Assembly (NCBI GenBank): GCA_030150965.1
Contig: JASLEW010000394.1
Location: 1-52,197 of the forward strand
Reading direction: 5' to 3'
From: Thermoanaerobaculia bacterium
GTDB lineage: Bacteria > Acidobacteriota > Thermoanaerobaculia > Multivoradales > UBA5704
Length of the DNA: 52,197 nucleotides
In this document: positions 28,901 to 43,900 of the stretch, piece after piece
Position numbering within the stretch: the first letter of the stretch is position 1
How the letters are laid out: each line of letters starts with the position of its first letter
Made by a program: the position numbers and the translations under genes
Notes under the pieces: model-generated
Seen by the model: only the letters and a program-made list of their open reading frames with translations
What the model was told of the DNA's origin: nothing
Database searches by the model: none

Positions 28901-30480
28901 TCAACCAGTACGGACCGAGCGAGACGACCATGACCTTCACCTGGTACGCGGCCACCGCGGACGACGAGGCCCGGCCGGCGCTTCCGGTGGGCCGGCCGGC
29001 CGCGTCCTCGCGGGTTTACCTGCTGGACCGGATGCTCCGCCCCGTGCCGCTGGGCGCAGCCGGGGAGATCTGCTGCGGAGGTCCCGGCCTGACTTATGGG
29101 TACCTCGGGCAACCGGACCGCACGGCCGAGGCCTTCATCCCCGATCCCTTCAGCGCCGTGGGCGAGCGGCTCTACCGGACGGGGGACCGCGGCCGGTACC
29201 GTCCCGATGGCGTCCTGGAGCTGCTCGGACGCATCGATTTCCAGGTGAAGATCCGCGGTCAGCGCGTCGAGCCCGGAGAGGTCGAGGCCGTGCTGCGCAG
29301 CCATCCGGCCGTGCGGCAGGCCGTTGTGGAGGCCCGCGGAAAAGAGGAGCCACGCCTGGCGGCCTGGCTGGTGGCGCAGGGCGTGAGCGCCAATGACCTC
29401 CGCGCTTTCCTGGCGGAGCGTCTCCCCGCGTCCATGATTCCTGCCGACTGGGTCTTCCTCGACGCCCTGCCGCTCACGCCACACAACAAGGTCGATCGCT
29501 CGCGCCTGCCGGAGCCCAGCCGCGAGCGCGCGGCGGCCGTCCAGGAGCCCCGCGACCGGACCGAGCTGCGGCTCGTCCGCCTGTGGGAAGAGATCCTTGG
29601 CATCCAGCCGGTCGGGATCTCCGACAACTTCTTCACCCTCGGAGGTCACTCCCTGTCCGCCGTCCGCCTGATGGCCGGCATCCGTCGCCTCTTCGGCCGG
29701 GACCTCTCCCTCTCCGTGCTCTTCCGGAAGCCCACGGTCGAGGAGCTCGCCGACACTCTGCGGCAGGACGGCCGGGATCTCCCCTGGTCCCCCCTGGTGG
29801 CGCTGACGCCGGAGCCCGCGGGCGAGATGCCCTGGCTCTTCATCCACGGCGGAGACGGGCACGCCCTCACCTTTGCCGATCTGGCCCGCACCTTGAGCGC
29901 GGCGGGTGAAGACCGGCCGGTCGTCGCCCTGGAGGCCCGCGGTCTTGCCGACGGGCAGACGCCGCTGGAGAGCATCGAAGACCTGGCGGAGGTCTACCTC
30001 AGCGCCATCCGGAAGGCCTGGCCAAGGGGCCCCTACCGGCTGCTGGGATACTCCATGGGGGGCAAGGTCGCCTTCGAGATGGCCCGCCGGCTGGAGCAGG
30101 AGGGCGAAACCGTGGAGCCGCTGATCCTCCTGGACATTCCCGCCCTCCCGCGCCCCGAGTCGGTTCCGGATCTCGAGGTCCCCGCGGAGGTCCGCGCTCT
30201 GCCGGGCTTCGATCCCGAGCTAGCGGACCGCTACCTCGCCGTCTGGAGGGCGCACCTGAAAGCCTCCCATTCCTGGACCCCGGCGCCCTTCGGAGGCAAG
30301 GTCCGCCTCCTCGTGGCGGAGGCGGGAACCTATGCCGGGAACCCGGATCCGGCCCTCGGCTGGGGAGCCGTGGCCGGGGGAGGGGTCGAGGTCGCCTCAA
30401 CCCCGGGAGATCACTTTAGCCTGCTCCGGCCGCCGCACGTCCAGACCCTCGTGGAGCGCTACTTGAAGAGGTATCTATGA
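16909..30480 (+). CDS. Non-ribosomal peptide synthetase B: four C-A-T modules plus terminal thioesterase
   Basis: The true start is ATG 16909 (ATGA overlap with the upstream stop); the track start 15760 is an upstream extension. C motifs: MHHIVADGWS (~17446), VHHLVSDGWS (~20671), LHHIVSDGWS (~23836 and ~27049). A cores: LSYIIYTSGSTGQPKG (~18864), LAYVLYTSGSTGTPKG (~22084), LAYVIYTSGSTGRPKG (~25246), PAYVVYTSGSTGRPKG (~28462). Carrier Ser codons: 20101, 23263, 26485, 29650. TE: GYSMGG (Ser 30052) and GDHF. All C domains look LCL-type; no E, MT or Cy domains were seen. Confidence 0.9.
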   Translation: MSVTVTDRLAALAPEQRALFERLLEKELEDARIHQPAPPILPVPRDRDLPLSFSQQRLWLIDQIEPGSPAYNIPQVLRLVGEIEPSLLQWIFSEIVRRHESLRTTFVSRQDGPVQVIASPEPLALSLLDLSHLPEKERESQARDLALAEARRPFDLQRGPLLRLLLVRLIERHHLLLLTMHHIVADGWSMGILVREIMALYTAFAEGRPSTLPELPVQYADFAVWQASWLQGEVLASEISFWKRQLAGLPPLLELPTDRPRPAAQTFRGATQPFHLESGSADAVRELCWREEATPFMVLLASWAALLGRHAGQDDVVMGAPVAGRNRREIEGLIGFFVNTLVLRSDLSGDPSFRELLHRVRQASLDAFAHQDLPFERIVEEIGVERNLAISPLFQVLFIFQNVPVGNLTVPGLALSQVDVDAGLAKFDLSLSLTDTGAGFSGALEFATDLFDSTTMDRLQDHFRTLLASAMSDPQRRLAELPLLANGELHQILWEWNDAPGRDGSSCVHHLIETQARRRSELAAVLTSEGVEISYGELDRLADRLASRLRALGVLPDDRVGVCLHRGWEGAVVLLAILKAGGCYLPLDPAYPRERLGFMLSDAAAPVIVTRDGLVEAQPVQGVRLLSLDDFWEGDRPREERRGDLPVVDLNHLSYIIYTSGSTGQPKGVALPHRTLANLIAWQITASAVPAGRTLQFASPSFDVSLQETLATWAAGGTLVLLSEDDRRDAEAVLRRLRGARVERLFLPFVALQQIAEAAARADALPPLREVVTAGEQLQMTPEVRAFFSRLPGCVLRNQYGPSETHVVTESSLWNEPHGEVEEWPALPSIGRPIAGTEVHLLDFRGELVPIGAPGEIYLGGRGLARGYLGRPDLTAARFLPDPWGSQGDRLYRTGDLARRSRSGEIEFLGRIDHQVKIRGFRVEPGEIEAALAEHPSVRQAVIAVREDLPGGRGLVAFVVPDGEPVPAVAELRQLLRERLPEFMVPGHLAFLDRLPVTPSGKVDRRALSKLRVFPEMPNHADRAESTPAASRSPVEELLAGIFAELLQAERVAPGESFFDLGGHSLLATQLVSRLRLVFGVELPVRAVFEAPTVASLATAVERALRKGEAARLPPLVRIAREGPLPLSFAQQRLWLVDQLQPGSAAYNIPVALRLAGRLDPRALAAALSEVVWRHEALRTVFELGPGGEPVQRIQPSAPVPLPVIDLRGLSSPGAESMRLARQEASRPFDLTAGPVLRAALVLSGELEQVLLLTVHHLVSDGWSTGVLIQELATLYPVLARGEASPLPELSVQYADFAVWQRRWLTGEVMAAELAYWRERLAGAPQALELPMDRPRPAVQTFRGRTLFLSLPTPLESLHELARRRRATLFMVLLASVQTLLARLASQSDISVGTPVSGRNHAQTEGLIGFFVNTLVMRSDLADEPAFGALLERVRETALEAYAHQDLPFEKLVEEVAPERDLGRTPLFQVMLVLQNAAFDGLELPDLRLEPLPVDSGTAKFDLTLSLGEDRGALAGFAEHNRDLFDATTVRRLLSQLDNLLQSALAAPERNVFDLELMGAAERLQVVQEWSGEDLGYPRERCVHELFAERAALHPEALAVSFRDEAWSYGELDRRSALLAERLRSLGIGPEVPVGLLTERSLEMVAGVLGILKAGGAYVPLDSSFPAERLEWMLRDTGAPVVLVQERRLGDLPAGPWRAVSLEGLCQGSEMAAAPGRSPGASRDNLAYVLYTSGSTGTPKGVAVPHRAVVRLVRGRDGLCIGADEVWLQLAPLAFDASTLEIWGALANGGRLEVFGPDKPTIEELGRKVESTGVTSLWLTAGLFHQVAESDLRTWRGLRRLLAGGDVLSPAHVRRALEELPGCRVINGYGPTENTTFTCCHDLTAPSQVEGPVPIGRPIANTRVHLVDRRGHPVPPGAPGELLTGGDGLARGYHGRPDLTAELFVPDPFAGQPGERLYRTGDLARWRPGGEIEFLGRIDQQVKIRGFRVEPGEIEAALATLPGAREVVVVAREDVSGNQRLVAYVVGEVETDSLRRSLRERLPDYMVPAVFVTLDALPLTANGKVDRRALPAPDGPDAGAGHLAPRTPVEEILAGIWAEVLGVGRVGVNDHFFDLGGHSLLATRVMSRMRGAFGVEIPLRSLFEAPTLAGSAARIEAALQARTAALAPPLTPIPRTGPLSLSFAQQRLWFIDQLAPGSPLYNIPVVLRAEGSLDCRVLALTLGEIVRRHEALRTVFAAPQGSPVQVIQPAAPFLLNVVDLSGLPESARQPLAHTLAREAAVHPFDLARGPLLRVLLLRVAEGDHVVVLTLHHIVSDGWSMGILVGELRDLYEAFAQGRPSTLPELPIQYADFAVWQRRWFQGEALEAQLDYWKRQLQGAPTALDLPLDHPRPALQSHRGAKRLVALPCLLSEAIGRLCSQREVTPFMTLLAAWAVLLGRHARQDDVLVGAPIAGRNRREIEGLIGFFVNTLVLRSDLSGTPSLHELLERVRRTALDAFTHQDLPFERIVEEVGAERNQAISPLFQAVFALQNAPLEDLEIPGLVLSPFDVDMGIVKFDLTLTLRESPAGFVGLLEYNADLFDVSTVDRLLARFEALLAAAVQEPSLPVAELPILLLGERQQMLVEWNDTRVPLFPACLHELIEAQADRSPDSVAVVAGDESLTYRELDLRANRVGHHLRTLGAGPDVLVGLCAERSPEMVIGMLGILKAGGAYVPIDPDYPQERLAFLLADSGVRAVLTQRHLADRIPAGEVCLVLLDSEERTVGAGGERPRGGALPESLAYVIYTSGSTGRPKGVLVPHAGAVNRLLWAQDAYPVTVADRVLHKASFSFDFSVWECFGPLIAGARLVLARPGEQRDPSQLVRTIRQQEITLVHFIPSMLQVFVAEEGVEACTSLRYVFSGGEALPAELAERCRERVPAVLRNQYGPTEISIDTTDWICRPEDSRRGFVPLGLPLANTALYILDQTLSPMPPGVAGELCVGGAGVTRGYWQRPDLTAEKFVPDPFSGQRGARLYRTGDRALRLLDGNVKFLGRMDHQVKIRGFRIELGEIEATLASHPAVRECVLLVREDTPGSRLLVAYVVLERQAEIQDPGSDLRRFVGERLPEHMVPSAIVALDAFPLSPNGKLDRRALPAPQSTRTSRSRRRRAARPVEQSYTAPSNPVEELLAGIWGEVLGIERVGIHESFFALGGHSLLATQVVSRIRSVLGAELPLRQLFESPTIASLARIVQSSGSTVQAPPILPVPRDHDLPLSFAQQRLWLVDQIEPGNLAYNMPLALRLTGGIAPGLLKGIFSEIVRRHEALRTTFASRDGWPVQVIAPPGPVELPVLDLSQLPESEREARARDLALVEAQRPFDLRRGPLLRLLLVRLAGTDHLLLLTLHHIVSDGWSAGVMLREIAALHEAFSQGRPSPLAGLPVQYADFAVWQRSWLQGEVLDAQLAGWKRQLAGAPAVLELPLDRPRPAIQSYRGARRPVLLSSPLSEAVGRLCRQQGVTPFMALLAAWAVLLGRHAGEDDVLVGAPIAGRNRREIEDLIGFFINTLVLRLDLSGAPSLAELLGRVRRTALDAFAGQDLPFERLVEDLAPERSLAYAPLFQVMFVLQNMPLGELAVPGLAISPLNVDAGLAKFDLSLNLFEGPEGVVGTLTYAVDLFDESTVERLIAGFQTLLAGMAAMAAADPAAPLHDLEVLPEAERRQLLAVWSAEETGASDLSLYELFERQAERTPDAVAVIYEEEIWTYRDLLRRSREIAGLLREQGVGPEARVAILDRRSPERLARVLGVLACGAAFVAIDREQPRARRAEILADVAPVWVFPPQPPLPEEGEGEVEAGVTVLPEVGALGSHVPCSCPGPAYVVYTSGSTGRPKGIFGHHRGAATYLEWIVRNYGLAESDVALQLAPLTFDASLRDTLAPLAAGGRIVIVPDDVARDPAALLERMAAHGVTCLPSIVPSLLRLLVEEALASGRKIPSLRLLLASGEKLHGADAAAVRRAFGPRVSLVNQYGPSETTMTFTWYAATADDEARPALPVGRPAASSRVYLLDRMLRPVPLGAAGEICCGGPGLTYGYLGQPDRTAEAFIPDPFSAVGERLYRTGDRGRYRPDGVLELLGRIDFQVKIRGQRVEPGEVEAVLRSHPAVRQAVVEARGKEEPRLAAWLVAQGVSANDLRAFLAERLPASMIPADWVFLDALPLTPHNKVDRSRLPEPSRERAAAVQEPRDRTELRLVRLWEEILGIQPVGISDNFFTLGGHSLSAVRLMAGIRRLFGRDLSLSVLFRKPTVEELADTLRQDGRDLPWSPLVALTPEPAGEMPWLFIHGGDGHALTFADLARTLSAAGEDRPVVALEARGLADGQTPLESIEDLAEVYLSAIRKAWPRGPYRLLGYSMGGKVAFEMARRLEQEGETVEPLILLDIPALPRPESVPDLEVPAEVRALPGFDPELADRYLAVWRAHLKASHSWTPAPFGGKVRLLVAEAGTYAGNPDPALGWGAVAGGGVEVASTPGDHFSLLRPPHVQTLVERYLKRYL

Positions 30481-32123
30481 GCCGCAGCCGATTGGATTGC
30501 CTGAGCATCGGGTACTACGAGCCCGCCTTCGAGGAGCACGAGAAGCTCCTCCGCCAGCTTGGAGAGGACTCGGAGGCCTACCGCGACCTGCAGTTCAGCT
30601 TCGTCGACCTGGGCGACCGGAAGCTGACCTACATGGGTCTCCTGAGCCATGCCTACCGCCTGGCCCATGGTCTGGATCCCGCAGGGGAAGACGACTTCAA
30701 GTCGGGGGACATCCCAAACCTGGCCGCGGTCTACCTGACGCACTTCCTGCGCCTCAAGGGGTTGCGGGCCGAGTATGTCAACCTGTTCTCCTACGAGCAG
30801 GACCGGCTGCGGAGCTGCCTGGACGAGGACCCGCTCTGCGTGTCCATCACGACCACGTTCTACAGCCTCAACTTTCCGGTCATCGAGATCGTCAAGGGGA
30901 TCCGCCGGCACAGCACGCGGACCCGGATCGTGGTCGGCGGCCCCCTGGTGGCGAACCATCACCGCCGCTACCCGCCCGACGAGCTGCTCATCGCTCTCGA
31001 CGATATGGGCGCGGACATCTACGTCATCGAGTCACAGGGTGAGCAGACCCTGTGGCGCGTGGTCGAGTGCCTGAAAAATGGCGGCGACCTGTCCCGGGTG
31101 CCGAACATCGTCTACCGCGACGAGGCGACCGGGAAGTTGCGCCTGAACGGGGCCGAGCGAGAGAACAACTCCCTGGACGAGTACGCCATTGACTGGCGGC
31201 TCTTCCGGGGCGACGCCCTGGGGCCGACGCTGCAAACGCGGACCGCCCGCAGCTGTGCGTTCAGCTGCGCCTTCTGCGGCTACCCGACGAGGGCGGGAAA
31301 GCTCACCCTGGCCAGCCTCGGCACCATCGAGCGCGAGCTCGATTCGATGCGGGACATCGGCGGCGTCCAGAACGTGGTCTTCATCGACGACACCTTCAAC
31401 GTGCCCCTGCCACGGTTCAAGGACATCTGCCGGCTGATGATCCGCAAGGGCTACGGCTTCAACTGGTTCTCCTACTTTCGCTGCAGCAACTCCGACGAGG
31501 AGGCGTTCGAGCTGATGGCCCGCAGCGGGTGCAAGGGAGTGTTCCTCGGTATCGAGTCGGGCTCGCCCCGCATCCTGGAGAACATGGACAAGCACGCGGC
31601 GGCCGACAAGTACCGCGAGGGAATTCGCCGGCTCAAGCAGCACGGGATCCTGACCTTCGGCTCCTTCATCGTCGGCTTTCCCGGTGAGACCGAGGAGACG
31701 ATCCGGGAGACCGTGGACTTCATCCGGGAGACCCGGCCGGACTTCTATCGGGCCCAGATCTGGTACTGCGAGCCGGGGACCCCCATTTACTACCGCAAGG
31801 AGAAGTACGGGATCGAGGGCGAGGGCTACAGGTGGCGGCACTCCACCATGGAGAGCCGGGAAGTGATGGACCACATCGACGACATGTTCCTCGACATCCG
31901 GGAGTCGGAGTGGCTCCCACAATGGTCCTTCGACTTCTGGGTCATCCCGTACCTGATTGGCAAAGGAATGTCCCTGGAGCAGTTCCGCGGCTTCGTCCAC
32001 GAGGCCAACCGGGCGCTGTCGCTGGAGATCGAGTACGTGCCGGACGCGGAGAAGCGGCGGCTCCAGCGCGACTGTGTCCAGAAGATGGTTGAGAACCTTC
32101 GCGGGTGGCGCCGGGCCGCCTAG
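30477..32123 (+). CDS. Cobalamin-binding (class B-like) radical SAM enzyme, probable methyltransferase-type tailoring enzyme
   Basis: ATGA overlap with the NRPS-B stop. N-terminal Rossmann-like B12-binding region (LCVSITTTFYS...RIVVGGPLV). Radical SAM cluster motif CAFSCAFCGY (CxxxCxxC, nt 31254-31277). The N-terminus LDCLSIGYYE...AYRDLQFSF resembles my recollection of PhpK-type family members. Confidence 0.8.
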   Translation: MSRSRLDCLSIGYYEPAFEEHEKLLRQLGEDSEAYRDLQFSFVDLGDRKLTYMGLLSHAYRLAHGLDPAGEDDFKSGDIPNLAAVYLTHFLRLKGLRAEYVNLFSYEQDRLRSCLDEDPLCVSITTTFYSLNFPVIEIVKGIRRHSTRTRIVVGGPLVANHHRRYPPDELLIALDDMGADIYVIESQGEQTLWRVVECLKNGGDLSRVPNIVYRDEATGKLRLNGAERENNSLDEYAIDWRLFRGDALGPTLQTRTARSCAFSCAFCGYPTRAGKLTLASLGTIERELDSMRDIGGVQNVVFIDDTFNVPLPRFKDICRLMIRKGYGFNWFSYFRCSNSDEEAFELMARSGCKGVFLGIESGSPRILENMDKHAAADKYREGIRRLKQHGILTFGSFIVGFPGETEETIRETVDFIRETRPDFYRAQIWYCEPGTPIYYRKEKYGIEGEGYRWRHSTMESREVMDHIDDMFLDIRESEWLPQWSFDFWVIPYLIGKGMSLEQFRGFVHEANRALSLEIEYVPDAEKRRLQRDCVQKMVENLRGWRRAA

Positions 32124-32146: not shown

Positions 32147-34594
32147 CTACTTGGAGCGGAACAGGGCAGAGGGATCCGCCTTGGTCGCCCGGTAGGCCGG
32201 CCTCAGGATCGCCGGCAGGGAGAACAGCGCGATGATGCAGGGCACGATGAGGAAGACGACGGGATCGTAAGGATTGACGTCGAACAGGATGCTCCCCATC
32301 GTCTTCGCCAAGCCGAGAGCGAACGCGAGCCCTGCGGCCAGGCCGATGGCGAGGAGCACCGCCCCCTTCCCGGCGAACTGCCGCAGGATGTCGGACGGAT
32401 CGGCCCCCATGGCCATGCGGATGCCGATCTCGAAGCTCTGCTGGCGTACGGTATAGGCCAGGATCGAGTAGATCCCGATCACCGCGAGCAGGAGGGCCGA
32501 CGACGCGAAGAAGATCAGCAGGAAGGCGTTGAGCCGCATGCCGGCCTCCTCCAGGTGCCTCCGTTCCTGCAGGGTCTTGATGTCGTAGACCGGGATGTCC
32601 GGGGCGATCGTCTGCATCAGGTTGCTCAGCTGGACGCGGGTCTGGTCACCCGCCCCGCGCGTATGCAGCAGGATCGATGCGGTCCTCGCCCGCATCTGGA
32701 GCAGGGGAAAATAGACGTCGCGGTGGAAATCGTGATCGAACAGGAGGCGCCCGCGCTGGTCGACATCCTCGACGACGCCGACCACCTCCGCCCAGACGTT
32801 CTGCGAGGCCCCCGAAAAGAACCGCTTGCCGACCGGGTTCTGGGAGGGCCAGAGCGCCTCCGCCGTGGAGCGGCTGAGGATGGCGACCACGGGGTGGCTG
32901 GCGTCGTCATGCTCGTTGAAGTCGCGCCCCTGGATGAGCTTGATGCCCGTCTTCCGCAGGAAGTTGGGCGAGGTCCGCTGGTCATAGACCTTGACCTTGT
33001 CCTCCGGCGCTTCGAGCGACTTGCCTTCCGGGACGATGAAGCGGTAGGTATAGCCCTCGCCAAGAATGCCGGGCCCCCACAGGCCCGCCTCCTCCACGTC
33101 CGGCAGAGTCCGCGCCTTCTCGAGCACCTGCTTGTACAGCAGGTATACGGGACCGTCCTCCTTGTATTGCGTCGCCGGCAGCTCGAACCGGGCGCTCAGG
33201 ACGTGCTCCACCTGGTACCCGGGATCGCTCTGGATCAAGGCCCGCAGGCTCTTGATCAGGAGACCCGCTCCGATCAGCAGGATGACGGAGAACAGGACCG
33301 CCGAGACGACCAGGAAGCTCCGGGTGGTAGCCGTGGCCGCCGACTGGCTGTGCCCCTTGCCCTCGGACTGCAGCTCCTCCTGGAGGTCCACGTTCAGGCT
33401 CTTCCGGGCCGGGATCACGCCGATCAGGAAGCTGACCAGGAGCGACACGATCACCGCCGCCGCCAGGGCTCGCAGGTCCACCGAGAACTGCATGAAGGCC
33501 GGGAGGTTGTAGGCTTGCCCGCCGAACGTGGAGAGGAGCTTCACCGCGAAGAGCGCCGCGCCGACGCCGAGCAGGGCGCCCGCCAGGCAGAGGAGGGCCC
33601 CTTCGAGGACGAAATCGCGGATCAGGCGGAGGCGGCTGCTCCCCAGGGCCAGCCGCAGGGCCACTTCCTTGCGCCGCTCGACCGCCCGCCCGAGGAGCAG
33701 GTTGGTGACGTTGGCGCAACCGACGAACAGGACGAAGACCGCTCCGATGAGCAGGGTCAGGACCGACAGGCGCATGCGCTCGAAGTCGAACTGGAATGTG
33801 CGCAAGGGGTGGACGGTGGCCACGAAGCCCGCGTTGGAGCTCGGGAAGGTGTGGGCGAGCTGTTGCGAGATCGAGCGCATCTCCTGCTGGGCCTGCTCCA
33901 GGCTGACCCCTGGCCGCCGGCGCGCGAACACGTCCAGCCAGCGCGCGATCCGGTCCTCGACGTAACCCGGCCGTTGCGTCAGCCTGGAGATGGTCACGGG
34001 CACGTAGAGGTCGATGTCGCGATAGATGTCGCGGAAGCCCTCGGGCAGGACACCGACGACCTGAAACGCGAGGCCCTGGAGCTGGATGCTCCGGCCGACG
34101 ATCGAAGGGTCCCCGCCGAAGCGGCGTTTCCACAGGCCGTGGCTGAGCACGGTCACCGCCTGCGGGCTGGTCCGGTCGTCCTCCTCCGGCTGGAAGCTCC
34201 GCCCGAGAGCCGGCCGGACTCCCAGCAGATCCAGATAGGAAGCAGAAACGTAGCCGGCGTTGACCCGCTCGGCACGGTCGCCCGCGGTCAGGTTGAGCTG
34301 CAGGCCGTTCGAGCTCGCGGAGATCAGCTCCAGAGTCTGGCTCTGCGCACGCCAGGAATCGACGTCCAGGTAGGAGGCCGGCAGGATCGACCCATCCCCT
34401 GCGGCCCGCATCCGCAGGACGGTCAGGCGGTCTCCCGCCTTGTAGGGGATCTCGCTCAGCAGCACGGAGCTCGCGATGCTGCAGATCGTCGTCATCGAGC
34501 CGATGCCCAGGGCCAGGATCATGAGGATAGAAAACGAGAGGCCGGGCCTTTTCACCAGGGCTTTGAAAGCCTGTCGAAGATCCGATGCCATCAT
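32147..34594 (-). CDS. ADOP-family duplicated FtsX/MacB-like permease (orphan, no adjacent ATPase)
   Basis: From Met at 34594, preceded by AAGGAGG: MMASDLRQAFKALVKRPGLSFSILMILALGIGSMTTICSIA, the typical ADOP/MacB N-terminus. The ~815 aa carry two TM-bundle regions separated by large periplasmic-type domains. The protein ends ...RATKADPSALFRSK. It is convergent with the radical SAM gene (23-nt gap). Confidence 0.85.
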   Translation of the reverse strand: MMASDLRQAFKALVKRPGLSFSILMILALGIGSMTTICSIASSVLLSEIPYKAGDRLTVLRMRAAGDGSILPASYLDVDSWRAQSQTLELISASSNGLQLNLTAGDRAERVNAGYVSASYLDLLGVRPALGRSFQPEEDDRTSPQAVTVLSHGLWKRRFGGDPSIVGRSIQLQGLAFQVVGVLPEGFRDIYRDIDLYVPVTISRLTQRPGYVEDRIARWLDVFARRRPGVSLEQAQQEMRSISQQLAHTFPSSNAGFVATVHPLRTFQFDFERMRLSVLTLLIGAVFVLFVGCANVTNLLLGRAVERRKEVALRLALGSSRLRLIRDFVLEGALLCLAGALLGVGAALFAVKLLSTFGGQAYNLPAFMQFSVDLRALAAAVIVSLLVSFLIGVIPARKSLNVDLQEELQSEGKGHSQSAATATTRSFLVVSAVLFSVILLIGAGLLIKSLRALIQSDPGYQVEHVLSARFELPATQYKEDGPVYLLYKQVLEKARTLPDVEEAGLWGPGILGEGYTYRFIVPEGKSLEAPEDKVKVYDQRTSPNFLRKTGIKLIQGRDFNEHDDASHPVVAILSRSTAEALWPSQNPVGKRFFSGASQNVWAEVVGVVEDVDQRGRLLFDHDFHRDVYFPLLQMRARTASILLHTRGAGDQTRVQLSNLMQTIAPDIPVYDIKTLQERRHLEEAGMRLNAFLLIFFASSALLLAVIGIYSILAYTVRQQSFEIGIRMAMGADPSDILRQFAGKGAVLLAIGLAAGLAFALGLAKTMGSILFDVNPYDPVVFLIVPCIIALFSLPAILRPAYRATKADPSALFRSK

Positions 34595-34939
34595 GATGGT
34601 CCCCCTGCCTCCTTGGGAGCCAGATCCAATGGGTCCAGAAGGTGGATGCCAGCCACGGCCTCCCTCTCCATCACCAGGGATCGGCAGCCTTGCCCGTGCG
34701 CGGATCTCATCCAGAAAGACGTGGGCCGTGATGCAGGCGAGGACGGCGAAGTCCGCACAGGTGGCGAGACGGTGGATGCTCCGCATCATGGTCCGTCAGG
34801 ATAGGATTATAGCTAAGACCGTTTGGTTTGGGGAAAGCGGGTGTCTCGAAGGCGACCTTGGCCTTCTCGCCGGTGACCCAGCCCTCGGCCTGGATGTCGC
34901 GATGAGGGCACAATCCCCCCTCCGGAGGAAGATAGCGCC

Positions 34940-36937
34940 ATGACCATTCGACGCGCTCTGGCCCTGGTCCCAGTCGTCTCGCTGCTGACTCTGACGCTGC
35001 CCGCGCAGACGCCGTCCCCCTCGCCCCTGGTGGACCGGATCGGCGCCCGCGGCTACCTGCAGGTCGAAGCCCCAAGCTATATCAAGCTGCCGCTGCGCCA
35101 GAAGCTCGTCGCCTACCACCTGTACCGGGCGGCGGTACAGCTCGATCCCATTTTCTACGACCAGATGTCGGCTTACGGGCTGACGGCCAAGCGGCTGCTG
35201 GGCGCGATGGTCGAGCGTCCGGAGCGCCTGCCGGAGGGGGCCCGCGCGGCGATCCTCGAGTATACGAAGCTCGTCTTCGGCAACCACGGGAACCACAACG
35301 AGACCACGGGGGAGAAATTCATCCCCACGATCTCGTTCGCGGACCTCTCCCAGGCCGCCCAGCAGGCGCGCGCGAAAGGGGCCAAGCTCGGCACCCAGGC
35401 CCAACTCGCGCAGACGCTCAAGTCGCTCCAGGCCCCGCTCTTCGATCCCAAGTTCCAGCCGCAGCTCACCACCAAGAACCCGCCGCCGGGCGAGGACATC
35501 CTCACCGCGTCGGGCAACAACTACTACCAGGGGGTCAAGCTCGACGACCTCCAGGGATTCACCGAGAGATATCCCCTGGATTCCCGCCTGGTCAAGAAGA
35601 ACGGCAGGCTGGTCGAGGAGGTCTGCCGGGCCGGCTCGCCGGACGGCAAGGTCCCGCCCGGCCTCTACGCCAAGGAGCTGCGGGCGGTCAACCGCGAGCT
35701 CGAGGAGGCGGCCCAGTCCGCCGATCCCGGCCTGGCCAAGGTGCTGCGCGCCCTGGTCCGCTTCTATCAGACCGGCGAGCTCAAGGACTGGCACGATTTC
35801 AACGTCCTCTGGATCCAAAACGACGAGGCGGTGGACTTCGCCTCCGGCTTCATCGAGGTCTACCGCGACGCCCGGGGGATCAAGGGGTCGTCGCAGATGG
35901 TGGTGGCCGTGGTCGACCAGGAGCTCGCGCCGCTGATGCACAAGCTGGCCGACAACGCCGTCTATTTCGAGCGCAAGGCGCCGTGGGAGGAGCGGTTCAA
36001 GAACCTCGACGTCAAGCCGCCGGTCGGCAAGGCGATCGAGACGCTGATCGCCAGCGGCGATTTCAGCGTCGCCACGACCGGGGACAACCTGCCGAACGAG
36101 CAGGATATCCGCGAGAGATACGGCACCAAGAGCATCATGCTGACCTCCACGATCAACGCCGTCAACGCCACGCGCGGCGCCAAGGCGGCGATAGAGTTCT
36201 CGGACGACCCGGCGGCGGGAGACCTCTTCTACCGCTACGGCATCACGGCGGACAAGCTCCACACGGCGCTGCACGAGATCATCGGCCACGGCTCGGGCAA
36301 GGTGGCGGTGCCCAAGGAGCCGTCGGCCTACCTCCGCGAGCACTTCTCGACGCTGGAGGAGGCGCGGGCCGACCTGGTGGCCGCCTGGAACATCTACGAT
36401 CCCAAGCTGGCCGAGCTCGGCGTGAAGGACGTCCCCGAGGTGGGCCGCGCGCTCTACCGGCAGATGGCGCGGGCTGGCCTCACGCCGCTCAAGAGCTACC
36501 CCACGGGGGACACGATCCTGTCGGACCCCGACCGCGCGCGCATGCTGGTGGCCAACTATCTGATCGAGGCCGGGGCCCTGGAGCGGGTGAGGAGGAACGG
36601 CCACTGGTACGTCGACGTGAAGGATTACGACAAGGCGCACGAGGCGGTCGGCAAGCTGCTCGCCGAGCTCATGCGGATCAAGGCCACCGGGGATTACGAC
36701 GGGATCAAGAAGCTGATCGACACCTACGGCCTCCACTTCGATCCGGCGGTGCGCGACGACGTGATCGCCCGCTACAGGAAGATCGACACTCCGATCTACC
36801 TCTCGGGCGTCTTCGCGGACCTGGCCCCCATCAAGGACAAATCGGGCAAGGTGACCGACGTCGCCATCTCCTACCCCCGCGACTTCCTCGCCCAACAGCT
36901 CGCCTGGGCGCGGGAGAACGGGACGCTGGGGCTTTAG
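34940..36937 (+). CDS. Secreted zinc metallopeptidase, family M49 (dipeptidyl-peptidase III-like)
   Basis: GGAGGA lies ~11 nt before ATG 34940. Signal-like N-terminus MTIRRALALVPVVSLLTLTLPAQ. Zinc motifs HEIIGHGSGK (HExxGH) and LEEARADLVA (EExRAD), spaced as in DPP III enzymes. Confidence 0.8.
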   Translation: MTIRRALALVPVVSLLTLTLPAQTPSPSPLVDRIGARGYLQVEAPSYIKLPLRQKLVAYHLYRAAVQLDPIFYDQMSAYGLTAKRLLGAMVERPERLPEGARAAILEYTKLVFGNHGNHNETTGEKFIPTISFADLSQAAQQARAKGAKLGTQAQLAQTLKSLQAPLFDPKFQPQLTTKNPPPGEDILTASGNNYYQGVKLDDLQGFTERYPLDSRLVKKNGRLVEEVCRAGSPDGKVPPGLYAKELRAVNRELEEAAQSADPGLAKVLRALVRFYQTGELKDWHDFNVLWIQNDEAVDFASGFIEVYRDARGIKGSSQMVVAVVDQELAPLMHKLADNAVYFERKAPWEERFKNLDVKPPVGKAIETLIASGDFSVATTGDNLPNEQDIRERYGTKSIMLTSTINAVNATRGAKAAIEFSDDPAAGDLFYRYGITADKLHTALHEIIGHGSGKVAVPKEPSAYLREHFSTLEEARADLVAAWNIYDPKLAELGVKDVPEVGRALYRQMARAGLTPLKSYPTGDTILSDPDRARMLVANYLIEAGALERVRRNGHWYVDVKDYDKAHEAVGKLLAELMRIKATGDYDGIKKLIDTYGLHFDPAVRDDVIARYRKIDTPIYLSGVFADLAPIKDKSGKVTDVAISYPRDFLAQQLAWARENGTLGL

Positions 36938-37068
36938 CCCGCGCCGCCGCGGCGGCCAAGCCCCGCCCCGTCCCGGGATCCGGCCCTCGGCGCACCTAGC
37001 AGATGGGGGGCAAGGGGCGCCCGGCGCCATCGCGGGGCCGCTCTCTCGGCCCACCGAAAGGAGGCTCT

Positions 37069-37233
37069 GTGGGCGACAAGAACAAGAGCATGAACGCCTT
37101 GGATCTCGAGGTCCAGGAGGTCGAGCAGTTCGCCTGCCTGGGCTGCGGGACGTCCTCGACCAGCCCGCGCTGTACCTGTCCGGTGACCCCCTCGACCACC
37201 GGCAGCCTGTTCACCGCCGAGGCCACTCGCTAG
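37069..37233 (+). CDS. Candidate RiPP precursor peptide (class I lanthipeptide-like leader; Cys/Ser/Thr-rich core)
   Basis: AAAGGAGG (37057-37064) lies 4 nt before in-frame GTG 37069; an alternative ATG is at 37090. Product: VGDKNKSMNALDLEVQEVEQFACLGCGTSSTSPRCTCPVTPSTTGSLFTAEATR. The gene sits directly upstream of the split LanB genes. Confidence 0.55.
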   Translation: MGDKNKSMNALDLEVQEVEQFACLGCGTSSTSPRCTCPVTPSTTGSLFTAEATR

Positions 37234-37240
37234 GGGGGCG

Positions 37241-37274
37241 GGGCGGCCGCCGCCTTGAAGGCCGGAGGCCGCCC
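37241..37274 (+). terminator. GC-rich stem-loop immediately after the precursor stop codon (possible attenuator or mRNA stabiliser)
   Basis: GGGCGGCC (37241-37248) is the exact reverse complement of GGCCGCCC (37267-37274), and further partial pairing is possible inside the loop. It starts 8 nt after TAG 37231-37233. There is no U-tract. Confidence 0.35.
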
Positions 37275-37410
37275 GACCCTGCTTCGTCCGCGGCGCCGGA
37301 CCACGGCGCGAGAGTGAGCGGAGGAAAGCCTGTCCTCGTCCGAGCAGCTCTGCCTCTTCGCCCTGCTTTACGCTCCCCGTGAGCAGCACGAACGGATCGT
37401 CAGCGAGCTG

Positions 37411-38208
37411 ATGACGCCGATCGCGCGCGAGGTGCGCGACGCTCCCGAGCTCGATTCCCTCTTCTTTGCCCGCTACAACGTGCCGAGCTGGCAGGTGCGG
37501 TTCCGCATCCTGGGGCGGCCGGAGTGGATCTCCGGGCCGGTCCGCGAACGGGTGCGGCAGGGGGTGGCGCCGTTGCAGGCGGCGGGCGCAATCGAGGCGG
37601 TCGAGTTCGCCGAATACGATCGCGAGCTCGAACGCTACGGCGGCGAGGAGGGCATGGCGCTGGCCGAGAAGCTCTTCCTCCACGATTCGCTGGCCATCCT
37701 CGAGCTGATCGAAGCCGACCGCCAGGGACTGCTGGAGAAGAGCCGGCGGGAGATCTCGCTGCTGATGACCGAGCGGCTCCTCGACCTGCTGCGCTTCGAT
37801 CGCGCCCAGCGCACCGCTTTCTACGCCTATGGCTACCAGTGGACCCGCGAGATGGGCACCTGGCGCGACGGCGACATGGACAAGATCGAGCAGCGCTACC
37901 AGGAGCTGAAGCCGGGCCTCCAGAACCTCTTCACCGGCGAGCGGTGCGGCGACCCCGCGTGGCTATGGGGAGGGACGACCGCCGCCCGGATCGCCGGCCG
38001 CTGGCTGGAGGCGAGCCGGCCCGTCGCCGAGGCGATCCTCGCCGCGCATGCCGCCGGGCGCGTCCACCAGGACCTCGGGTATCTCGCCTGGTCGTATGCG
38101 CACATGAGCTGCAACCGCTTCGGCATCGACTCCACGCCGGAAGCCATCCTGCGCTACTTCATGCACCGGCTCTACGAGGACGGAGGGGGCAACCCCGCGG
38201 GCTCGTGA
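37411..38208 (+). CDS. Lantibiotic dehydratase C-terminal (glutamate-elimination, SpaB_C / thiopeptide-type bacteriocin biosynthesis) domain protein; true start probably upstream of the first ATG
   Basis: FFARYNVPSWQVRFRILG and AEYDRELERYGGEEGM match the hallmark FFxRY...hxRxR and YxxExxRYGG blocks of this domain. The same frame is open from 37318 and still looks homologous (LCLFALLYAPREQHERIVSEL) but contains no ATG/GTG/TTG. Confidence 0.8.
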   Translation: MTPIAREVRDAPELDSLFFARYNVPSWQVRFRILGRPEWISGPVRERVRQGVAPLQAAGAIEAVEFAEYDRELERYGGEEGMALAEKLFLHDSLAILELIEADRQGLLEKSRREISLLMTERLLDLLRFDRAQRTAFYAYGYQWTREMGTWRDGDMDKIEQRYQELKPGLQNLFTGERCGDPAWLWGGTTAARIAGRWLEASRPVAEAILAAHAAGRVHQDLGYLAWSYAHMSCNRFGIDSTPEAILRYFMHRLYEDGGGNPAGS

Positions 38209-40793
38209 CCGCATCGCCGGCCGCGGGCGCCCACCTGGCGCTCCTTCGCATCACCACCCTCCCCTTCGAGATCCTTGGCCCGCTCGCCGGCGCCGAGGCG
38301 GCCGGCGGCGCCGCCGGGCTGGCGGACCTCGCGGCCCGCCTCGACGACGAGGCGCCAGGACTCACCGCGGCCCTGCATGCCGCGGCCGGCGCACCGCCGG
38401 ACCCGGGGGACGGCCGGGCGGCGCCGGGCAGAAGCGCGGTGATCGCGGTCCGCCGCGCCATCCACAATCGCCGTGCGGTGGCGCCGGCCGAGCTCGCGGC
38501 GCTGCGGCAGCGCCTGGCGCCCGACCTGCTCGCCGCGGTCGCGGCTCATCTCGCCGGCCGCGCCGAGCTCGCGGCGCGGCAGGCCGAGCTCACCCGGGCC
38601 TACCGGTCGGACCTGGAGCGGGCACGCCGGGCGCTTCTCGCCCTGGCCGGCGAGAGCCTCTTTCAGGAGGGGATCCGGCTGGTCAGCCGGTCTCTCCTGG
38701 CGCGGGTGCGGCGGCTCCACGGCTGCGATCCCGGCCGCCTGCGGCACGACGAGCGCCACACCCTGGCCAAGCTCACCGCCTACGCGGCGCGATTCGCCAC
38801 CAAGAGCAGCCCCAACTCGCTGTTCTGCGCCACCGCCCTGTGCTGGATCGGGGGCGAGCAGGCGCGGGCAGCCGGCGCCAACCGGCTGGCGCGCCTCGAC
38901 GTCGTCCTGTCCGTGGCCGAGGCCCGGAAGATCAGCGCCTGCATCGGCGCCGACCGCGCCGCCTGGCCGGCGATCGTGCCCCGCCCCAACCCCACGCTGC
39001 GCTGCGCGGCGGGGGTCTGGAGCTTCTGGCGCCCGAGCTCGCCGCGCGGCGACTCCGACAACGAGGTGCTCTGCCGCACCCGCTCCCAGCCCGTCCTCGA
39101 CCTCTTCCTGGAGGAGGCCGGCCGCGGCACGCTCAGCGTTCCCGCGCTGCTCGCGGCGGTGGCCGAACGGGCGCAGATCGAGGTCGCCGAGCTGACGCCG
39201 TTCTTCGCGCGGCTGGCCGACAAGGGCATCCTGATCGCCGAGATCGAGGCGCCGTACAACTGCCGCCGCCCGCTGCGGCTGGTCGCCGAGCGGATGCGGC
39301 GAGCGCGGGCGGAGGCCCCCTGGCTGCCGGAGGTCGAGGCGGTGGAGGAGGAGGTGGATGCCCTGCCGCAGCTGCGGGCCGAGGAGCGGATGGCCGCCAT
39401 GGACCGGCTCGAGGCGCGGCTCGCGGCGCTTCCCCGCACGCGCGAGATCAGGGGCGACGAGCTGTTCCGCGTCGATGCGGCCACCGCGATGGAGGTCCAC
39501 CTGCCCGAGCGGGTCCGGGCCGAGGTCGAGGTGCCGCTGCGCCGCTGCGTGCGCCTGTTCGCCGCGCTCTATCCCGAGCTGGCGTTCCGGCGCGGTTGGG
39601 CGCAGCGGTTTCTCTCCCGCCACCCGGCCGATACCGACGTGGTGCTGCTCGACCTGTACCACGGGCTCTTCGAGCCCGAGGCGCGGCACCGGCCGGACTC
39701 GTTCCCCGAGGCGCCGCCCGGCGCCGCCGCCGCGCAGCAGCTGCAGCTGCGGACCCGCGAGCTCCTGGCGGCGCGGGCGCGGGCCGCGCTCGGCGCCGGC
39801 CAGGACGAGGTCGAGCTCGGGGACGCGGACTGGCAGGCCCTGGCGGGCGGCCTGCCCGAGCCGAGGTGGTCGGCGGGGGCGCTCTTCCAGATCGCCGCCC
39901 GGAGCGTCGAGGAGATCGCGGCGGGGCGCTATCGCGCGGTGCTCAACGCGCTGTTCGGCGCCGGCATCGCCCTCGCCCGCTTCGCTCACCTCCACGGCGG
40001 GCCGGGAGCCGACAACGCGGTGGCCCGCGAGGTGGCGCGGAGCTGGCAGCCGCTGGCCAGGCCCGGAGCGGTCTGCGCCGAGGTGACGTACAACCACCTC
40101 GGCCGCACCGCCAACGCCGGCCTGCGCCCGGCGCTCTTCCGCCACGAGATCGAGCTGCCGGGCAGCCTTGCCACGCCCGGCAGCGAGGTGATCCCGCTGC
40201 GCGAGATGACCGTGCGCTGGGACACGGCGGCGGAGCGGTTCGTGCTGCTCTGGCCGCGCGCCGGCGTCGAGGTGATCCCGGTGGTGAGCAGCGGCGTCAG
40301 CCCGGAGGGGTTCGTCCAGTTCCTGGTCGAGATCGGCCGCCAGGGCCTGCAGCCGCTCGGCTGGTTTCCGGGCTTCGACGTCCCCGGCCTCGGCTGCTGG
40401 CCGCGCTTCCGCAGCGGCAGGCTGGTGCTCTTCCGCCGCCGCTGGGTCTTCCCCGCCGGCGAGGCGCCCGCGGTCCCGGCGCCGGCGGCCGACCCCGACG
40501 CGGCCGGCGCCCTCTTCTTCGCCCGCTGCGCCGGCTGGCGGCGCCGTCACCGCCTGCCGCGTCACGTCTTCGTCCATACTCCGGCCGAGCCCAAGCCCTT
40601 CTACTGCGACCTGGACTCGCCGCTCTTCGTGGACCTGCTGCGCCGCCTGCTCTCCCCGGCCGGCGGAGCCGCGGCGGCGGCCGCCCCCACGCTCCAGGTG
40701 ACCGAGATGCTCCCCGCACCCGGCGAGATGTGGGCGCAGGACGAGCGCGGCCGCTACGCCAGCGAGATCCTCCTCCACCTCTCCGGCCCGTAG
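38205..40793 (+). CDS. Lantibiotic dehydratase N-terminal (tRNA-Glu-dependent glutamylation) domain protein, split LanB
   Basis: GTG 38205 overlaps the upstream stop (GTGA). N-terminal LLRITTLPFEIL, then SLFQEGIRLVSRSLL and LAKLTAYAARFATKSSPNSLFCAT. These are the conserved early LanB blocks. About 860 aa, with no elimination domain at the C-terminus. Confidence 0.8.
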   Translation: MTASPAAGAHLALLRITTLPFEILGPLAGAEAAGGAAGLADLAARLDDEAPGLTAALHAAAGAPPDPGDGRAAPGRSAVIAVRRAIHNRRAVAPAELAALRQRLAPDLLAAVAAHLAGRAELAARQAELTRAYRSDLERARRALLALAGESLFQEGIRLVSRSLLARVRRLHGCDPGRLRHDERHTLAKLTAYAARFATKSSPNSLFCATALCWIGGEQARAAGANRLARLDVVLSVAEARKISACIGADRAAWPAIVPRPNPTLRCAAGVWSFWRPSSPRGDSDNEVLCRTRSQPVLDLFLEEAGRGTLSVPALLAAVAERAQIEVAELTPFFARLADKGILIAEIEAPYNCRRPLRLVAERMRRARAEAPWLPEVEAVEEEVDALPQLRAEERMAAMDRLEARLAALPRTREIRGDELFRVDAATAMEVHLPERVRAEVEVPLRRCVRLFAALYPELAFRRGWAQRFLSRHPADTDVVLLDLYHGLFEPEARHRPDSFPEAPPGAAAAQQLQLRTRELLAARARAALGAGQDEVELGDADWQALAGGLPEPRWSAGALFQIAARSVEEIAAGRYRAVLNALFGAGIALARFAHLHGGPGADNAVAREVARSWQPLARPGAVCAEVTYNHLGRTANAGLRPALFRHEIELPGSLATPGSEVIPLREMTVRWDTAAERFVLLWPRAGVEVIPVVSSGVSPEGFVQFLVEIGRQGLQPLGWFPGFDVPGLGCWPRFRSGRLVLFRRRWVFPAGEAPAVPAPAADPDAAGALFFARCAGWRRRHRLPRHVFVHTPAEPKPFYCDLDSPLFVDLLRRLLSPAGGAAAAAAPTLQVTEMLPAPGEMWAQDERGRYASEILLHLSGP

Positions 40794-40972: not shown

Positions 40973-43900
40973 ATGGCGAAGCGCAGAGCTGGCGTCGTCT
41001 CGTTGCTGTCTCCTGTCCGCGAAGGCCACGATCGCCGCGCCCGCCGCGCCCGCCGCGGCGGCCACGCGGTGGCGAGAGCGTGTGCGGCCGCGCGGCCGAC
41101 CGCCTGCGCCGCGCTGCTTCTCGTTGCCGGCACCCTGGGGGCACCGCGGCCCGGCGCGGCGGAGACCTGCTGGGCGTACGGCGATTCGGTCAATGCGCTG
41201 GTGCCGATCAGGTGCGTGCAGAAAAGTGATCTCACCAGTCCGTGCTCCTACGGCAGCCTGGCCTCGCCGACCGATTGCACCGCGGTGCCGGCGGCGAGCC
41301 CGCAGACCATCCTGGAGATGCACAAGGTGTGGCACGAATGCTTCGGCGCGGTCGGCGGCTCCAACCCACCGGCAGGGCGGGGGCAGCGCTGGTACGCCTT
41401 CCACCGGCAGTTCGAGTTCGACTACGACGCCTTCCGGCGCGGCGTGGGGTTCCCGCCGATCGAATCGCTCGATTGGTGTCCTGGCATGGACATGCCCTAC
41501 GGCACCGACCCGATCGCGCTCGCGCCGGGGGCGCATCCGCTCGGCTGCGGCACCGGCACCCCGCGCCCCGATCACGTGGCCTGTCCGGAGTGCATCGCCT
41601 TCGCGCAGTGCCTCTTCCTGCCCGGCGGCGGTCCCATCGGCTGCCCGAGCGCTCCGAGCGCCACCTGCTCGACGCCGGATCCCGCCGTGTCGTTCCCCTA
41701 TGCCTCGCTCGACCAGTTCCAGAGCGTCGACGAGGTGACGAAGCTGCTCGACGCCGAGTTCCACGGCCTGATGCATCAGGCGGTCGCCGACGCCGACAAC
41801 CCGGGCTTCTACAACCAGGACAACTCCGGATCGAACTGCTCGCCGCGCGACGGCATGTTCTGGCGGCTGCACAAGGCCCTCGACGACGTGGTGCGGGCCT
41901 GGCAGGACGTCAAGGCGGTGGACGTCGTGGTCGTGCTCGACCGCTCGGGCAGCATGGGCGATCCCGACGCCTCCGGCTCGACCAAGCTCCAGGCGGCGCT
42001 TGCCGCGGTCAACAACTTCGCCGGCCTGCTGGAGACCAGCCGCACCGACGGCCAGGTGAACCGCATCGGCCTGGTCTCCTTCTCCAACGCGGCGACGCCC
42101 GATCTGCCGATGACGGTCGCCGACTCGACGCTGCTCGCCGCCGGCGGGCCGCTCGCCACCGCGCTCGGCCACATCTCGGCGACCGGTCCCGGCGGCTGCA
42201 CCGGCATGGGCGCCGGCATCCAGCAGGCGATCAACCTGCTCTGCCCGGGAGGCAGCTGCAACGGCTTCGCGGGGCCGGGCAACCCGCGCAAGGCGATCCT
42301 GCTGCTCACCGACGGCATCGAGAACGTGCCGCCCTGCCTCCAGCCGGCGGGCGCGAGCGGCGCGACCTGCGGCGACCAGTGCTTCGGGCCGCAGCTCGAC
42401 TACACCCATCTCTCCTTCACCCAGCTGGTCGCCGTCGGCTTCGGCACGGCGGCAACGCTCGACGGCGGCAAGCTGACCCTGCTCGCCGAGCGCCAGGGGG
42501 GCATCTACGTGCAGAACCCGGGCGGCGCGGGCGACGATCTGAAACATTTCTTCACCAAGGGTTTCGGCGAGCTGACCGACGAGTTCACGCGGGTCGATCC
42601 GACCGGCGTGCTGGCGCCGGCCGACGCCGCTTCGGAGCCGGTCGATTACAGCTCCTGCGGCGACTCGAAGCTCACCTTCGCCTCCGGCTGGCTCGCTCCG
42701 GTGCCCGCGGGAGCGCTGCGCCTCCAGGTCACGACGCCGACCGGCGCGCTGGTGCTTCCCGCGGGGCCGGGAGTCCAGGCGTCGCGCCAGCCGACCTGGG
42801 ACTTCGCGCGCATCAAGCTGCCGCAGGGGGCGCCGGTGACCGGCGCATGGAGCGCCCAGATCATCCGGCCGCACCGCGTCTACGTCAACGGCTTCACTCC
42901 CGACAGCTTCGCCGACCCGGCCGCGGGCACCACCCTGGTGCGCGACGAGATCCATCGCCTGTGCCCGGACGGCTGCCGGCGGGTGCTCACCGTCGAGCTC
43001 GGGCGGCGCGGCCCGGTCTCGGCCTACGTGCAGGCGGTCAAGGCGGAGGAGCAGGCGGGGGCGCTGTCCGGGGTCAAGTCGCTGACCGACGCCAAGGAGT
43101 TCGCCGCGGCGCTCGCCGGCGGCGCCTGGGATCTGATCGTCTACGCCTACATGGGCGCGGAGACGGCCCAGCCCTACGATGAGGGGTTCGCGAACCTGAT
43201 CTGCCAGGGCCAGCGCGCCGTGCTGACCGACGTGCGGGCGCAGGTCGGCGGTCCGGTCATCCTGCGTTGCGGCGGGGCGCTGCGCGAGGGTCCGACCAAC
43301 TGGCCGCTGCTCGCGGGCGACGGCAGGCTCGCCGCCGGCTCCTTCGCGCTGCGCAACCCGGGCTACCCCGTCTTCAGCTTCGGCCTGCGGCCGACCTCCG
43401 GCCAGAGCATCGTGCAGGCGACCGCCGGCGGCAAGGACCCGGCGGTGACGGCCATCGTTTCGACCGGCAAGGAGGTGCGCTGGTACCTGGATGTCCTCGG
43501 CTCCGGGCTCGCCCGGATCGATCTCCACAACCGCTCGCTCGACCAGCGGGCCGGCGACGAGCTCTTCGCCACCGCCCACATCCTGCCCTCCTTCGTGCCG
43601 GCCGGCGGCTTCGACAAGGTCGATGCACGGGTCGAGGTCACCTACCCGCAGATCGGCCTGGGGACGCTCCTCTCCCGCGCCAAGGGCGAGCCGCGCCGGG
43701 TCAACGGCGAGATCCTCTCCGCCCGCTCGGCGGCGGCGTCGAAGCTCGCGATCCCCACGGCGACGGCGACGTTCCCGCTCTACGACGACGCCACGCACGG
43801 CGACCTCCTGCCCAACAACGCCTACTGGACCGCCGCGCTCACCGGCATCAAGGCGACCGACGGCCCCTACACGCTGCATTTCACCTTCGATCTGACCAAG

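Follow-up and report, generated by a model that had tools for sequence, protein, structure and literature searches.

A conserved peptide gene beside a split LanB dehydratase in Thermoanaerobaculia as a probable RiPP precursor gene

We show here that the 54-codon gene at positions 37069 to 37233 of the window, which is the whole stretch of 52,197 nucleotides that was analyzed, is a real gene and is tightly linked to a split LanB dehydratase across about 70 loci, and that the elimination subunit of this enzyme has retained its catalytic residues and fold. The encoded peptide is very probably a RiPP precursor that is modified by this class I-type, glutamyl-tRNA-dependent Ser/Thr dehydratase, encoded at 37330 to 40793. 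Gene linkage together with enzyme conservation argues strongly for dehydration of Ser and Thr residues in the peptide core.

The precursor gene, whose assignment draws on the reading frame, its homologs, and pN/pS ratios, runs on the forward strand from GTG (37069 to 37071) to TAG (37231 to 37233). Its product, VGDKNKSMNALDLEVQEVEQFACLGCGTSSTSPRCTCPVTPSTTGSLFTAEATR, is exactly the 54-residue peptide given in the preliminary description of this DNA, and the hand count of 4 Cys and 13 Ser/Thr among its last 33 residues was reproduced. The strong Shine-Dalgarno sequence mentioned there lies at 37056 to 37064 on the forward strand (GAAAGGAGG, containing GGAGG), 4 nt before the GTG. In 54 homologous genes, AAGGAG is located 5 to 8 nt before an ATG or GTG codon aligned to 37069, which, on the earlier question of a start at 37069 or at 37090, supports 37069. 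The Met encoded at 37090 is not conserved in homologs, and an extension to 37003 has no counterpart in them; both starts were rejected. In the peptide frame, GC3 is 0.84 to 0.92 across the whole ORF, in a window with a G+C content of about 70%. Opposite-strand ORFs at 36934 to 37683 and 36996 to 37226 were discarded, since GC3 favors the forward frame and homologs keep the peptide on this strand. Automated annotation has neither missed the ORF nor extended it to 37003, as had been feared, since the source record already contains the 54-aa protein (P0001).

A protein database search returned 26 homologs of 44 to 86 amino acids, mostly 53 to 56, a genome scan yielded a further 12 loci, every one from an Acidobacteriota or Thermoanaerobaculia MAG, and a scan of metagenomes that started from the elimination protein contributed 80 additional loci. 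The 61 distinct homologous peptides that were aligned all come from Acidobacteriota (Thermoanaerobaculia) where the source is named, and they share the signature L-[DNE]-L-E-[VI]-x-E-x-E ... GC-x(1,2)-[TS]-S-[ST]-T-x3-C-T-C. Within the leader box at residues 10 to 19 (A-L-D-L-E-V-Q-E-V-E; 37096 to 37125, forward strand), L11, L13, and E19 are invariant, and conservation is at least 90% at E14 and E17. The FNLD box of class I leaders suggests, by analogy, that this element may bind the dehydratase. ALDLEV had been likened to such an FNLD-like box in the preliminary description; the L-[DNE]-L-E portion of this likeness is conserved, but residues vary where FNLD has Phe and Asn. The core motif, G25-C-G-T-S-S-T-S-P-R-C-T-C37 (37141 to 37179, forward strand), includes the invariant residues G25, C26, T31, C35, and T36, and S29 and C37 are nearly so. 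All Cys residues of the CxxC...CxC pattern described earlier for the core are present in the window peptide, but the family can do without the first Cys of CxxC, which many members replace with other residues. The alignment further delimits a C-terminal tail (37180 to 37230, forward strand; PVTPSTTGSLFTAEATR), of which the segment S/TTT[AG]SLFTA[KR] is kept in the main clade and is missing from a divergent short-peptide clade. The peptide C termini are varied (EATR, KTAS, RTVS, and truncated forms). Neither a GG nor a Pro-Arg-type cleavage motif was found in the peptide, and the border between leader and core is thus undefined.

Constraint is distributed unevenly along the peptide, with pN/pS values of about 1 at residues 2 to 9, 0.4 to 0.6 in the leader box, 0.22 to 0.38 in the core motif, and about 0.5 in the tail. 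This substitution pattern fits a translated, selected peptide and indicates that the gene is under purifying selection. Constraint is highest in the core motif, the reverse of what had been anticipated, namely a leader that is conserved and a core that varies. Searches of curated models placed the peptide in no family: no Pfam model matched the window peptide at an E value of ≤0.01, and no NCBIfam precursor model (gallidermin/nisin, FxLD, thiazolylpeptide, and others were considered) matched any of three family members at an E value of ≤0.1. A profile comparison of the family peptide with NisA gave no significant leader match and reached a probability of 12%, in the core only.

Linkage to the dehydratase was assessed at 94 non-redundant elimination-gene loci, 78 of which have at least 300 nt of upstream sequence. 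One to five tandem family peptide genes lie directly upstream of the elimination gene and on the same strand in 65 of these 78 loci, and a family peptide is encoded anywhere in the locus in 71 of the 78. Where the elimination protein is at least 60% identical to that of the window, an adjacent peptide was detected in 42 of 43 loci. A Lant_dehydr_N gene follows the elimination gene in 50 of the 53 loci with at least 1.5 kb of downstream DNA. Gene order in the window is peptide, PF14028, and PF04738, all on the forward strand; members of the divergent clade sometimes carry the peptide gene after the dehydratase genes or in divergent orientation. The preliminary description had named lack of conservation beside LanB homologs as the finding that would speak against a LanB-modified precursor. 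This reading is supported, since dozens of related loci keep the small ORF next to LanB homologs and, in the window, the peptide gene is followed by one gene for each half of a LanB dehydratase. An orphan family peptide gene with a strong Shine-Dalgarno sequence was observed between genes for a TPR protein and YchF in two loci (L007, 10001 to 10171; L008, 7433 to 7603), with no dehydratase gene within 10 kb.

The first of the two downstream genes (37330 to 38208, forward strand) encodes a stand-alone LanB elimination subunit (Lant_dehydr_C) of 292 amino acids, matching PF14028 (E value, 4e-42) and TIGR03891. A profile of 16 orthologs places window residues R59, R102, and H258 at the positions of NisB R786, R826, and H961, and all three are invariant. 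We take these NisB residues to be essential for glutamate elimination, as was reportedly found by Ortega et al. in 2015. An AF2 model of the subunit (mean pLDDT, 93.6) finds its best fold matches in the elimination domains of MadB, MibB, and NisB (E values of 1e-12 to 1e-9, 17 to 21% identity); the [4+2] aza-cyclases TsrL, PbtD, and TbtD score lower (E values of 1e-7 to 1e-5, 10 to 14% identity). Because the residues are invariant and the modeled fold is nearer to elimination domains than to aza-cyclases, sequence and model identify the protein as an elimination enzyme and not a pyridine synthase. The elimination family comprises 397 database clusters at an E value of ≤1e-5; the best 120 of the 397 are all at least 55% identical and annotated as "thiopeptide-type bacteriocin biosynthesis protein," and their named sources are Thermoanaerobaculia or Ca. 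Polarisedimenticolia. Between 37318 and 37411, no ATG, GTG, or TTG start precedes the conserved N terminus. The source record and five close relatives begin a 265-aa elimination protein at an internal ATG (37411 in the window), and the invariant residues C8, R17, and H20 are all encoded upstream of this codon. Judged from the sequence, the gene probably starts with CTG at 37330, 5 nt after GGAGG; the alternative is a systematic N-terminal truncation in annotation.

The second gene (38205 to 40793, forward strand) encodes the LanB glutamylation subunit (Lant_dehydr_N; PF04738, 7.6e-67) of 862 amino acids, and its GTG start overlaps the preceding stop codon (GTGA). The listed LanB_N ORF of 1,089 amino acids (37524 to 40793) was not accepted: approximately 230 codons at its beginning share their DNA with the PF14028 gene, read in a different frame, and orthologs, which align from residues 1 to 5 up to residue 862, indicate a start at 38205. 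No solved relative of the glutamylation subunit came up in a single-sequence search, and there was no sequence-level match to NisB; a profile search identified TbtB (6EC7; E value, 4.7e-25), a protein of near-equal length, as the closest solved relative. An extra N-terminal domain was also considered and dismissed, since residues 7 to 225 align with residues 16 to 228 of TbtB and there is thus nothing extra at the N terminus. At L013, L014, L015, L019 to L021, and other loci, the GTGA of the window is replaced by CTGA, in which a CTG overlaps the stop codon of the elimination gene. The start of the glutamylation gene may often be non-canonical or translationally coupled in orthologous loci.

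The peptide and elimination genes are separated by a structured spacer (37234 to 37329, forward strand) with two GC-rich stem-loops, a folding energy of -60.9 kcal/mol, and a z score of -3.11, and none of 200 shuffled sequences was as stable as the whole spacer. Folding of a 76-nt excerpt (37225 to 37300) gave a z score of -0.41, no better than shuffles, so that the GC hairpin reported earlier after the stop codon is significant only when the full spacer is folded. Equivalent spacers in 67 homologous loci have a median z score of -2.2, and 38 of them fall below -2. No T tract is present and a terminator consensus scan was empty; together with the full-spacer z score, this characterizes the hairpin as real and not a canonical intrinsic terminator. 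The second stem-loop (37281 to 37329) pairs with the GGAGG ahead of the elimination gene. It could limit translation of the enzyme relative to the precursor, and the spacer as a whole may act in attenuation, transcript stability, or translation limitation. Hairpins are known to follow lantibiotic structural genes, and by analogy the structured spacer, the weak CTG start, and the paired Shine-Dalgarno sequence probably keep the precursor in excess over the enzymes.

We propose a mechanism in which leader binding, the dehydration sites, ring formation, proteolysis, and export are predicted steps. The N-terminal approximately 21 residues would constitute the leader, and its L-x-L-E...E...E box would dock on the TbtB-like glutamylation subunit (38205 to 40793). 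This subunit would esterify core Ser and Thr residues with glutamate from Glu-tRNA, the main targets presumably being the [TS]-S-[ST]-T run and T36, and the elimination subunit (37330 to 38208) would then remove the glutamate to leave dehydroalanine or dehydrobutyrine. C26, C35, and C37 would be likely to add to the dehydro residues, giving thioether rings either with no dedicated cyclase or with the help of a LanC encoded elsewhere in the genome. A peptidase from outside the module would cut off the leader.

The explanation that competes most closely with this mechanism departs from it at the cyclization step only. It holds that the same precursor and the same split LanB yield an ordinary class I lanthipeptide whose rings are made by a canonical LanC encoded elsewhere in the genome, and we regard it as a tentative possibility. 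Three conserved Cys residues next to the Ser/Thr run are in line with it, and split LanBs paired with LanC are known from the pinensin and SapT systems (PMC7268733, PMC9011353). LanC-like genes do occur within 10 kb in some family loci. Among the 26 loci flanked by 5 kb or more on each side, only 4 have them, and these fall into two independent contexts. L001, L009, and L010, which are related to one another, encode a kinase-LanC fusion on the opposite strand, 2 to 7 kb downstream, and L024 has two LanC genes 5 to 7 kb upstream, beside a second, unrelated Cys-rich peptide. Against this explanation, there is no LanC-like gene in the other 22 of these 26 loci or in the window, and those that exist differ in type, position, and strand between loci, for which reason they look like neighbors and not like parts of the module.

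For the window, no PF05147 match was found among the scanned ORFs, and neither tblastn nor an HMM, both built on four Acidobacteriota LanC sequences, produced a match over the 37 kb before and the 15 kb after the peptide gene, a search basis that very divergent cyclases could escape. The precomputed Pfam annotation of L003, L005, L007, and L011 contains no LanC either, and LANC_like is absent from the 25 most frequent Pfam families listed (down to families with two ORFs) for 89 flanking ORFs at ten loci. With LanC-like genes so rare near the module, thioether formation is unsupported by gene content. As regards assignment to class I lanthipeptides, the adjacent PF04738 (7.6e-67) and PF14028 (4e-42) genes predict a class I dehydratase activity, and the peptide has a leader and a core with Ser/Thr and Cys, like a class I precursor; no linked LanC accompanies them, so that membership fails on the linked cyclase and the name "lanthipeptide" is not established. 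Assignment to thiopeptides, pyritides, or PEARLs fails more clearly still. A second type of Cys-rich peptide, with the leader pattern MKK..KL.L..ETL and a core of 6 to 7 Cys, was observed inside a tandem array in L013 (9716 to 9895) and, next to the two LanC genes, in L024 (4865 to 5059). One dehydratase may serve two precursor families in some genomes.

Among known systems, the pinensins of Chitinophaga and SapT of Streptomyces resemble the window module in several respects. They share a small precursor, an acidic leader with L-D-L, a core rich in Cys and Ser/Thr, a dehydratase split into PF04738 and PF14028 proteins, and a hairpin after the precursor gene. Unlike them, the window family has no linked LanC in most loci, places the elimination subunit first, lacks the Phe-Asn of FNLD in its leader, resides in Acidobacteriota, and has an unusually invariant core. 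NisA and NisB offer a more distant parallel. The NisB elimination triad R786, R826, and H961 is kept, and the L-D-L of the leader and the C-x-P-G-C and C-x-C of the core are superficially nisin-like, whereas the profile comparison of NisA with the window family is not significant and NisB is a single polypeptide working with NisC, in contrast to the split window enzyme.

It is quite unlikely that the peptide is not a modified precursor at all and instead is a small Cys-rich protein, for instance a metal-binding one, or a regulatory micro-ORF that neighbors the dehydratase by chance. The CxxC...CxC spacing does recall metal-binding motifs, strong core conservation is atypical for the variable precursors of antimicrobial peptides, and one copy, that of L007/L008, is unlinked to LanB. 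However, adjacency to the split dehydratase in one to five tandem copies is nearly constant, CxxC lacks conservation at its first Cys, and the invariant residues are precisely those expected for dehydratase and thioether chemistry, namely the Ser/Thr run and C-T-C. In addition, LanB substrates typically have an acidic L-x-L-E leader of this kind.

We consider it very improbable that the PF14028 protein serves, instead of or in addition to elimination, as a [4+2] aza-cyclase forming a pyridine macrocycle from two dehydroalanines, as in pyritides or thiopeptides. This idea draws on the relation of the glutamylation subunit to the thiopeptide enzyme TbtB, on the match of the PF14028 protein to TIGR03891 ("thiopeptide-type bacteriocin biosynthesis protein"), on the additional fold matches to TbtD, PbtD, and TsrL, and on adjacent Ser residues in the core. 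It is opposed by the nearer structural similarity of the PF14028 protein to elimination domains and by the presence of a single PF14028 gene at each locus examined, with none besides it in the 52-kb window and with the three NisB elimination residues invariant; if this sole protein were the cyclase, none would be left for elimination. Moreover, neither YcaO nor an azoline dehydrogenase was found among the Pfam matches of the window ORFs or of the neighbors at annotated related loci. The window module shares with TbtB/TbtC of thiomuracin and MroB/MroC of the pyritides the distribution of the dehydratase over separate polypeptides, with TbtB as the nearest solved relative and the elimination subunit in TIGR03891. 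Unlike thiopeptide and pyritide systems, it has no YcaO/azole machinery and no second PF14028 aza-cyclase, and its precursor is unrelated to thiopeptide precursors.

Larger biosynthetic genes are present in the neighborhood of the peptide gene. An NRPS-PKS-NRPS line ending in a thioesterase (3399 to 30480, forward strand) terminates 7 kb upstream. Directly after its thioesterase end lies a gene on the forward strand for a PhpK-family B12/radical-SAM P-methyltransferase (30477 to 32123; TIGR04479, 637.5 bits at a cutoff of 600). This arrangement may be a sign that an acidobacterium makes a non-ribosomal product of the phosphinate type; the window showed no PEP mutase. A 483-aa ORF (15461 to 16912) contains a complete condensation domain and overlaps the beginning of the 4,906-aa NRPS ORF (15760 to 30480) in a different frame. 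Either the C domain belongs to a protein of its own, or the NRPS gene carries a frameshift or an assembly error. The reading in which the LanB_N protein serves the adjacent NRPS-PKS line as a PEARL, adding an amino acid from aminoacyl-tRNA to the C terminus of the peptide or to the NRPS product with no dehydration, is the least probable of all: the line lies 7 kb upstream and LanB-like enzymes in NRPS-PKS clusters were shown to act as PEARLs (PMC11212132), but an intact elimination subunit is always co-encoded, whereas PEARLs have no elimination partner, the three-gene module occurs in many unrelated neighborhoods devoid of NRPS or PKS genes, and the peptide C termini are variable, unlike a scaffold whose C terminus is the substrate. 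The likeness of the module to the PEARL systems of TglB, AmmB, and SnaB consists in a LanB_N-family enzyme beside a small peptide and, in the window, near an NRPS-PKS line; it differs from them in its constant association with an intact elimination subunit, its variable peptide C terminus, and its independence from NRPS-PKS genes.

No gene beyond the peptide and the dehydratase pair is conserved family-wide. The NRPS-PKS genes, the radical-SAM enzyme, an M49 peptidase, and a MacB permease are not part of the conserved module. The NRPS-PKS and PhpK-like radical-SAM genes were rejected as parts of the system since they are absent from the conserved context at other loci, and a dedicated protease or transporter was likewise discarded, with M49, M16, M1, and M50 peptidases and ABC/MacB components found nearby and none conserved family-wide. 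A gene for an M49-family metallopeptidase (34940 to 36937, forward strand) ends 131 nt upstream of the peptide gene, and a divergently oriented gene, identified by its domain match, encodes a MacB/FtsX-type permease (32147 to 34789, reverse strand). They are possible candidates for a leader-trimming protease and an exporter, respectively, with uncertain membership in the system. Directly after the dehydratase genes follow genes on the forward strand for a 1,221-aa VWA-domain protein (40973 to 44638), with a sub-threshold tyrosinase-domain match (E value, 0.004), and, downstream of it, for an acidobacterial VWA protein identified by an NCBIfam match (TIGR03436); neither is conserved at other loci. 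No Rfam families or tRNA genes were detected in the 52-kb window. Elsewhere in the family, M16 peptidases recur near the module in a subset of loci and an ATP-grasp pair is present in five. A class I SAM methyltransferase of about 260 amino acids is encoded directly after LanB_N in nine loci of the divergent short-peptide clade (L054, L065, L066, L074, L087, L091, L092, L099, and L103), which suggests that this clade adds a methylation step.

The precursor family is undescribed, with no curated model and no paper in the literature searched, and its enzymology is familiar. Literature searched on split LanB and class I lanthipeptides in Acidobacteria or Thermoanaerobaculia contained nothing on this precursor family, and the one paper on Thermoanaerobaculia lanthipeptides found in it deals with class II and III systems. 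So far, the minimal architecture, usually with no cyclase, is confined to Acidobacteriota. It takes the form of a compact three-gene module of about 3.7 kb in a rarely cultivated phylum whose natural products are almost unexplored. Genome-mining rules that require LanC or YcaO, as the antiSMASH rule does, would probably overlook the module.

Since most loci have no cyclase nearby, the family offers a clean test of whether a split LanB can finish a product alone and of how thioether rings form without LanC, and the small size of the module and its many natural variants make it amenable to heterologous expression. With due reserve, we entertain the idea that it might represent a cyclase-independent RiPP class for which precursor and split LanB are sufficient, either because the invariant core folds in such a way that its three Cys residues add to the new dehydro residues with no LanC, or because the product keeps dehydro residues and free thiols. 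In the latter case, the retained dehydro residues and thiols would be functional groups that serve, for instance, to bind metal or to capture a target covalently. The wide spread of the family in soil Thermoanaerobaculia and the strong conservation of its core would point to one conserved target or to a physiological, non-antibiotic role.
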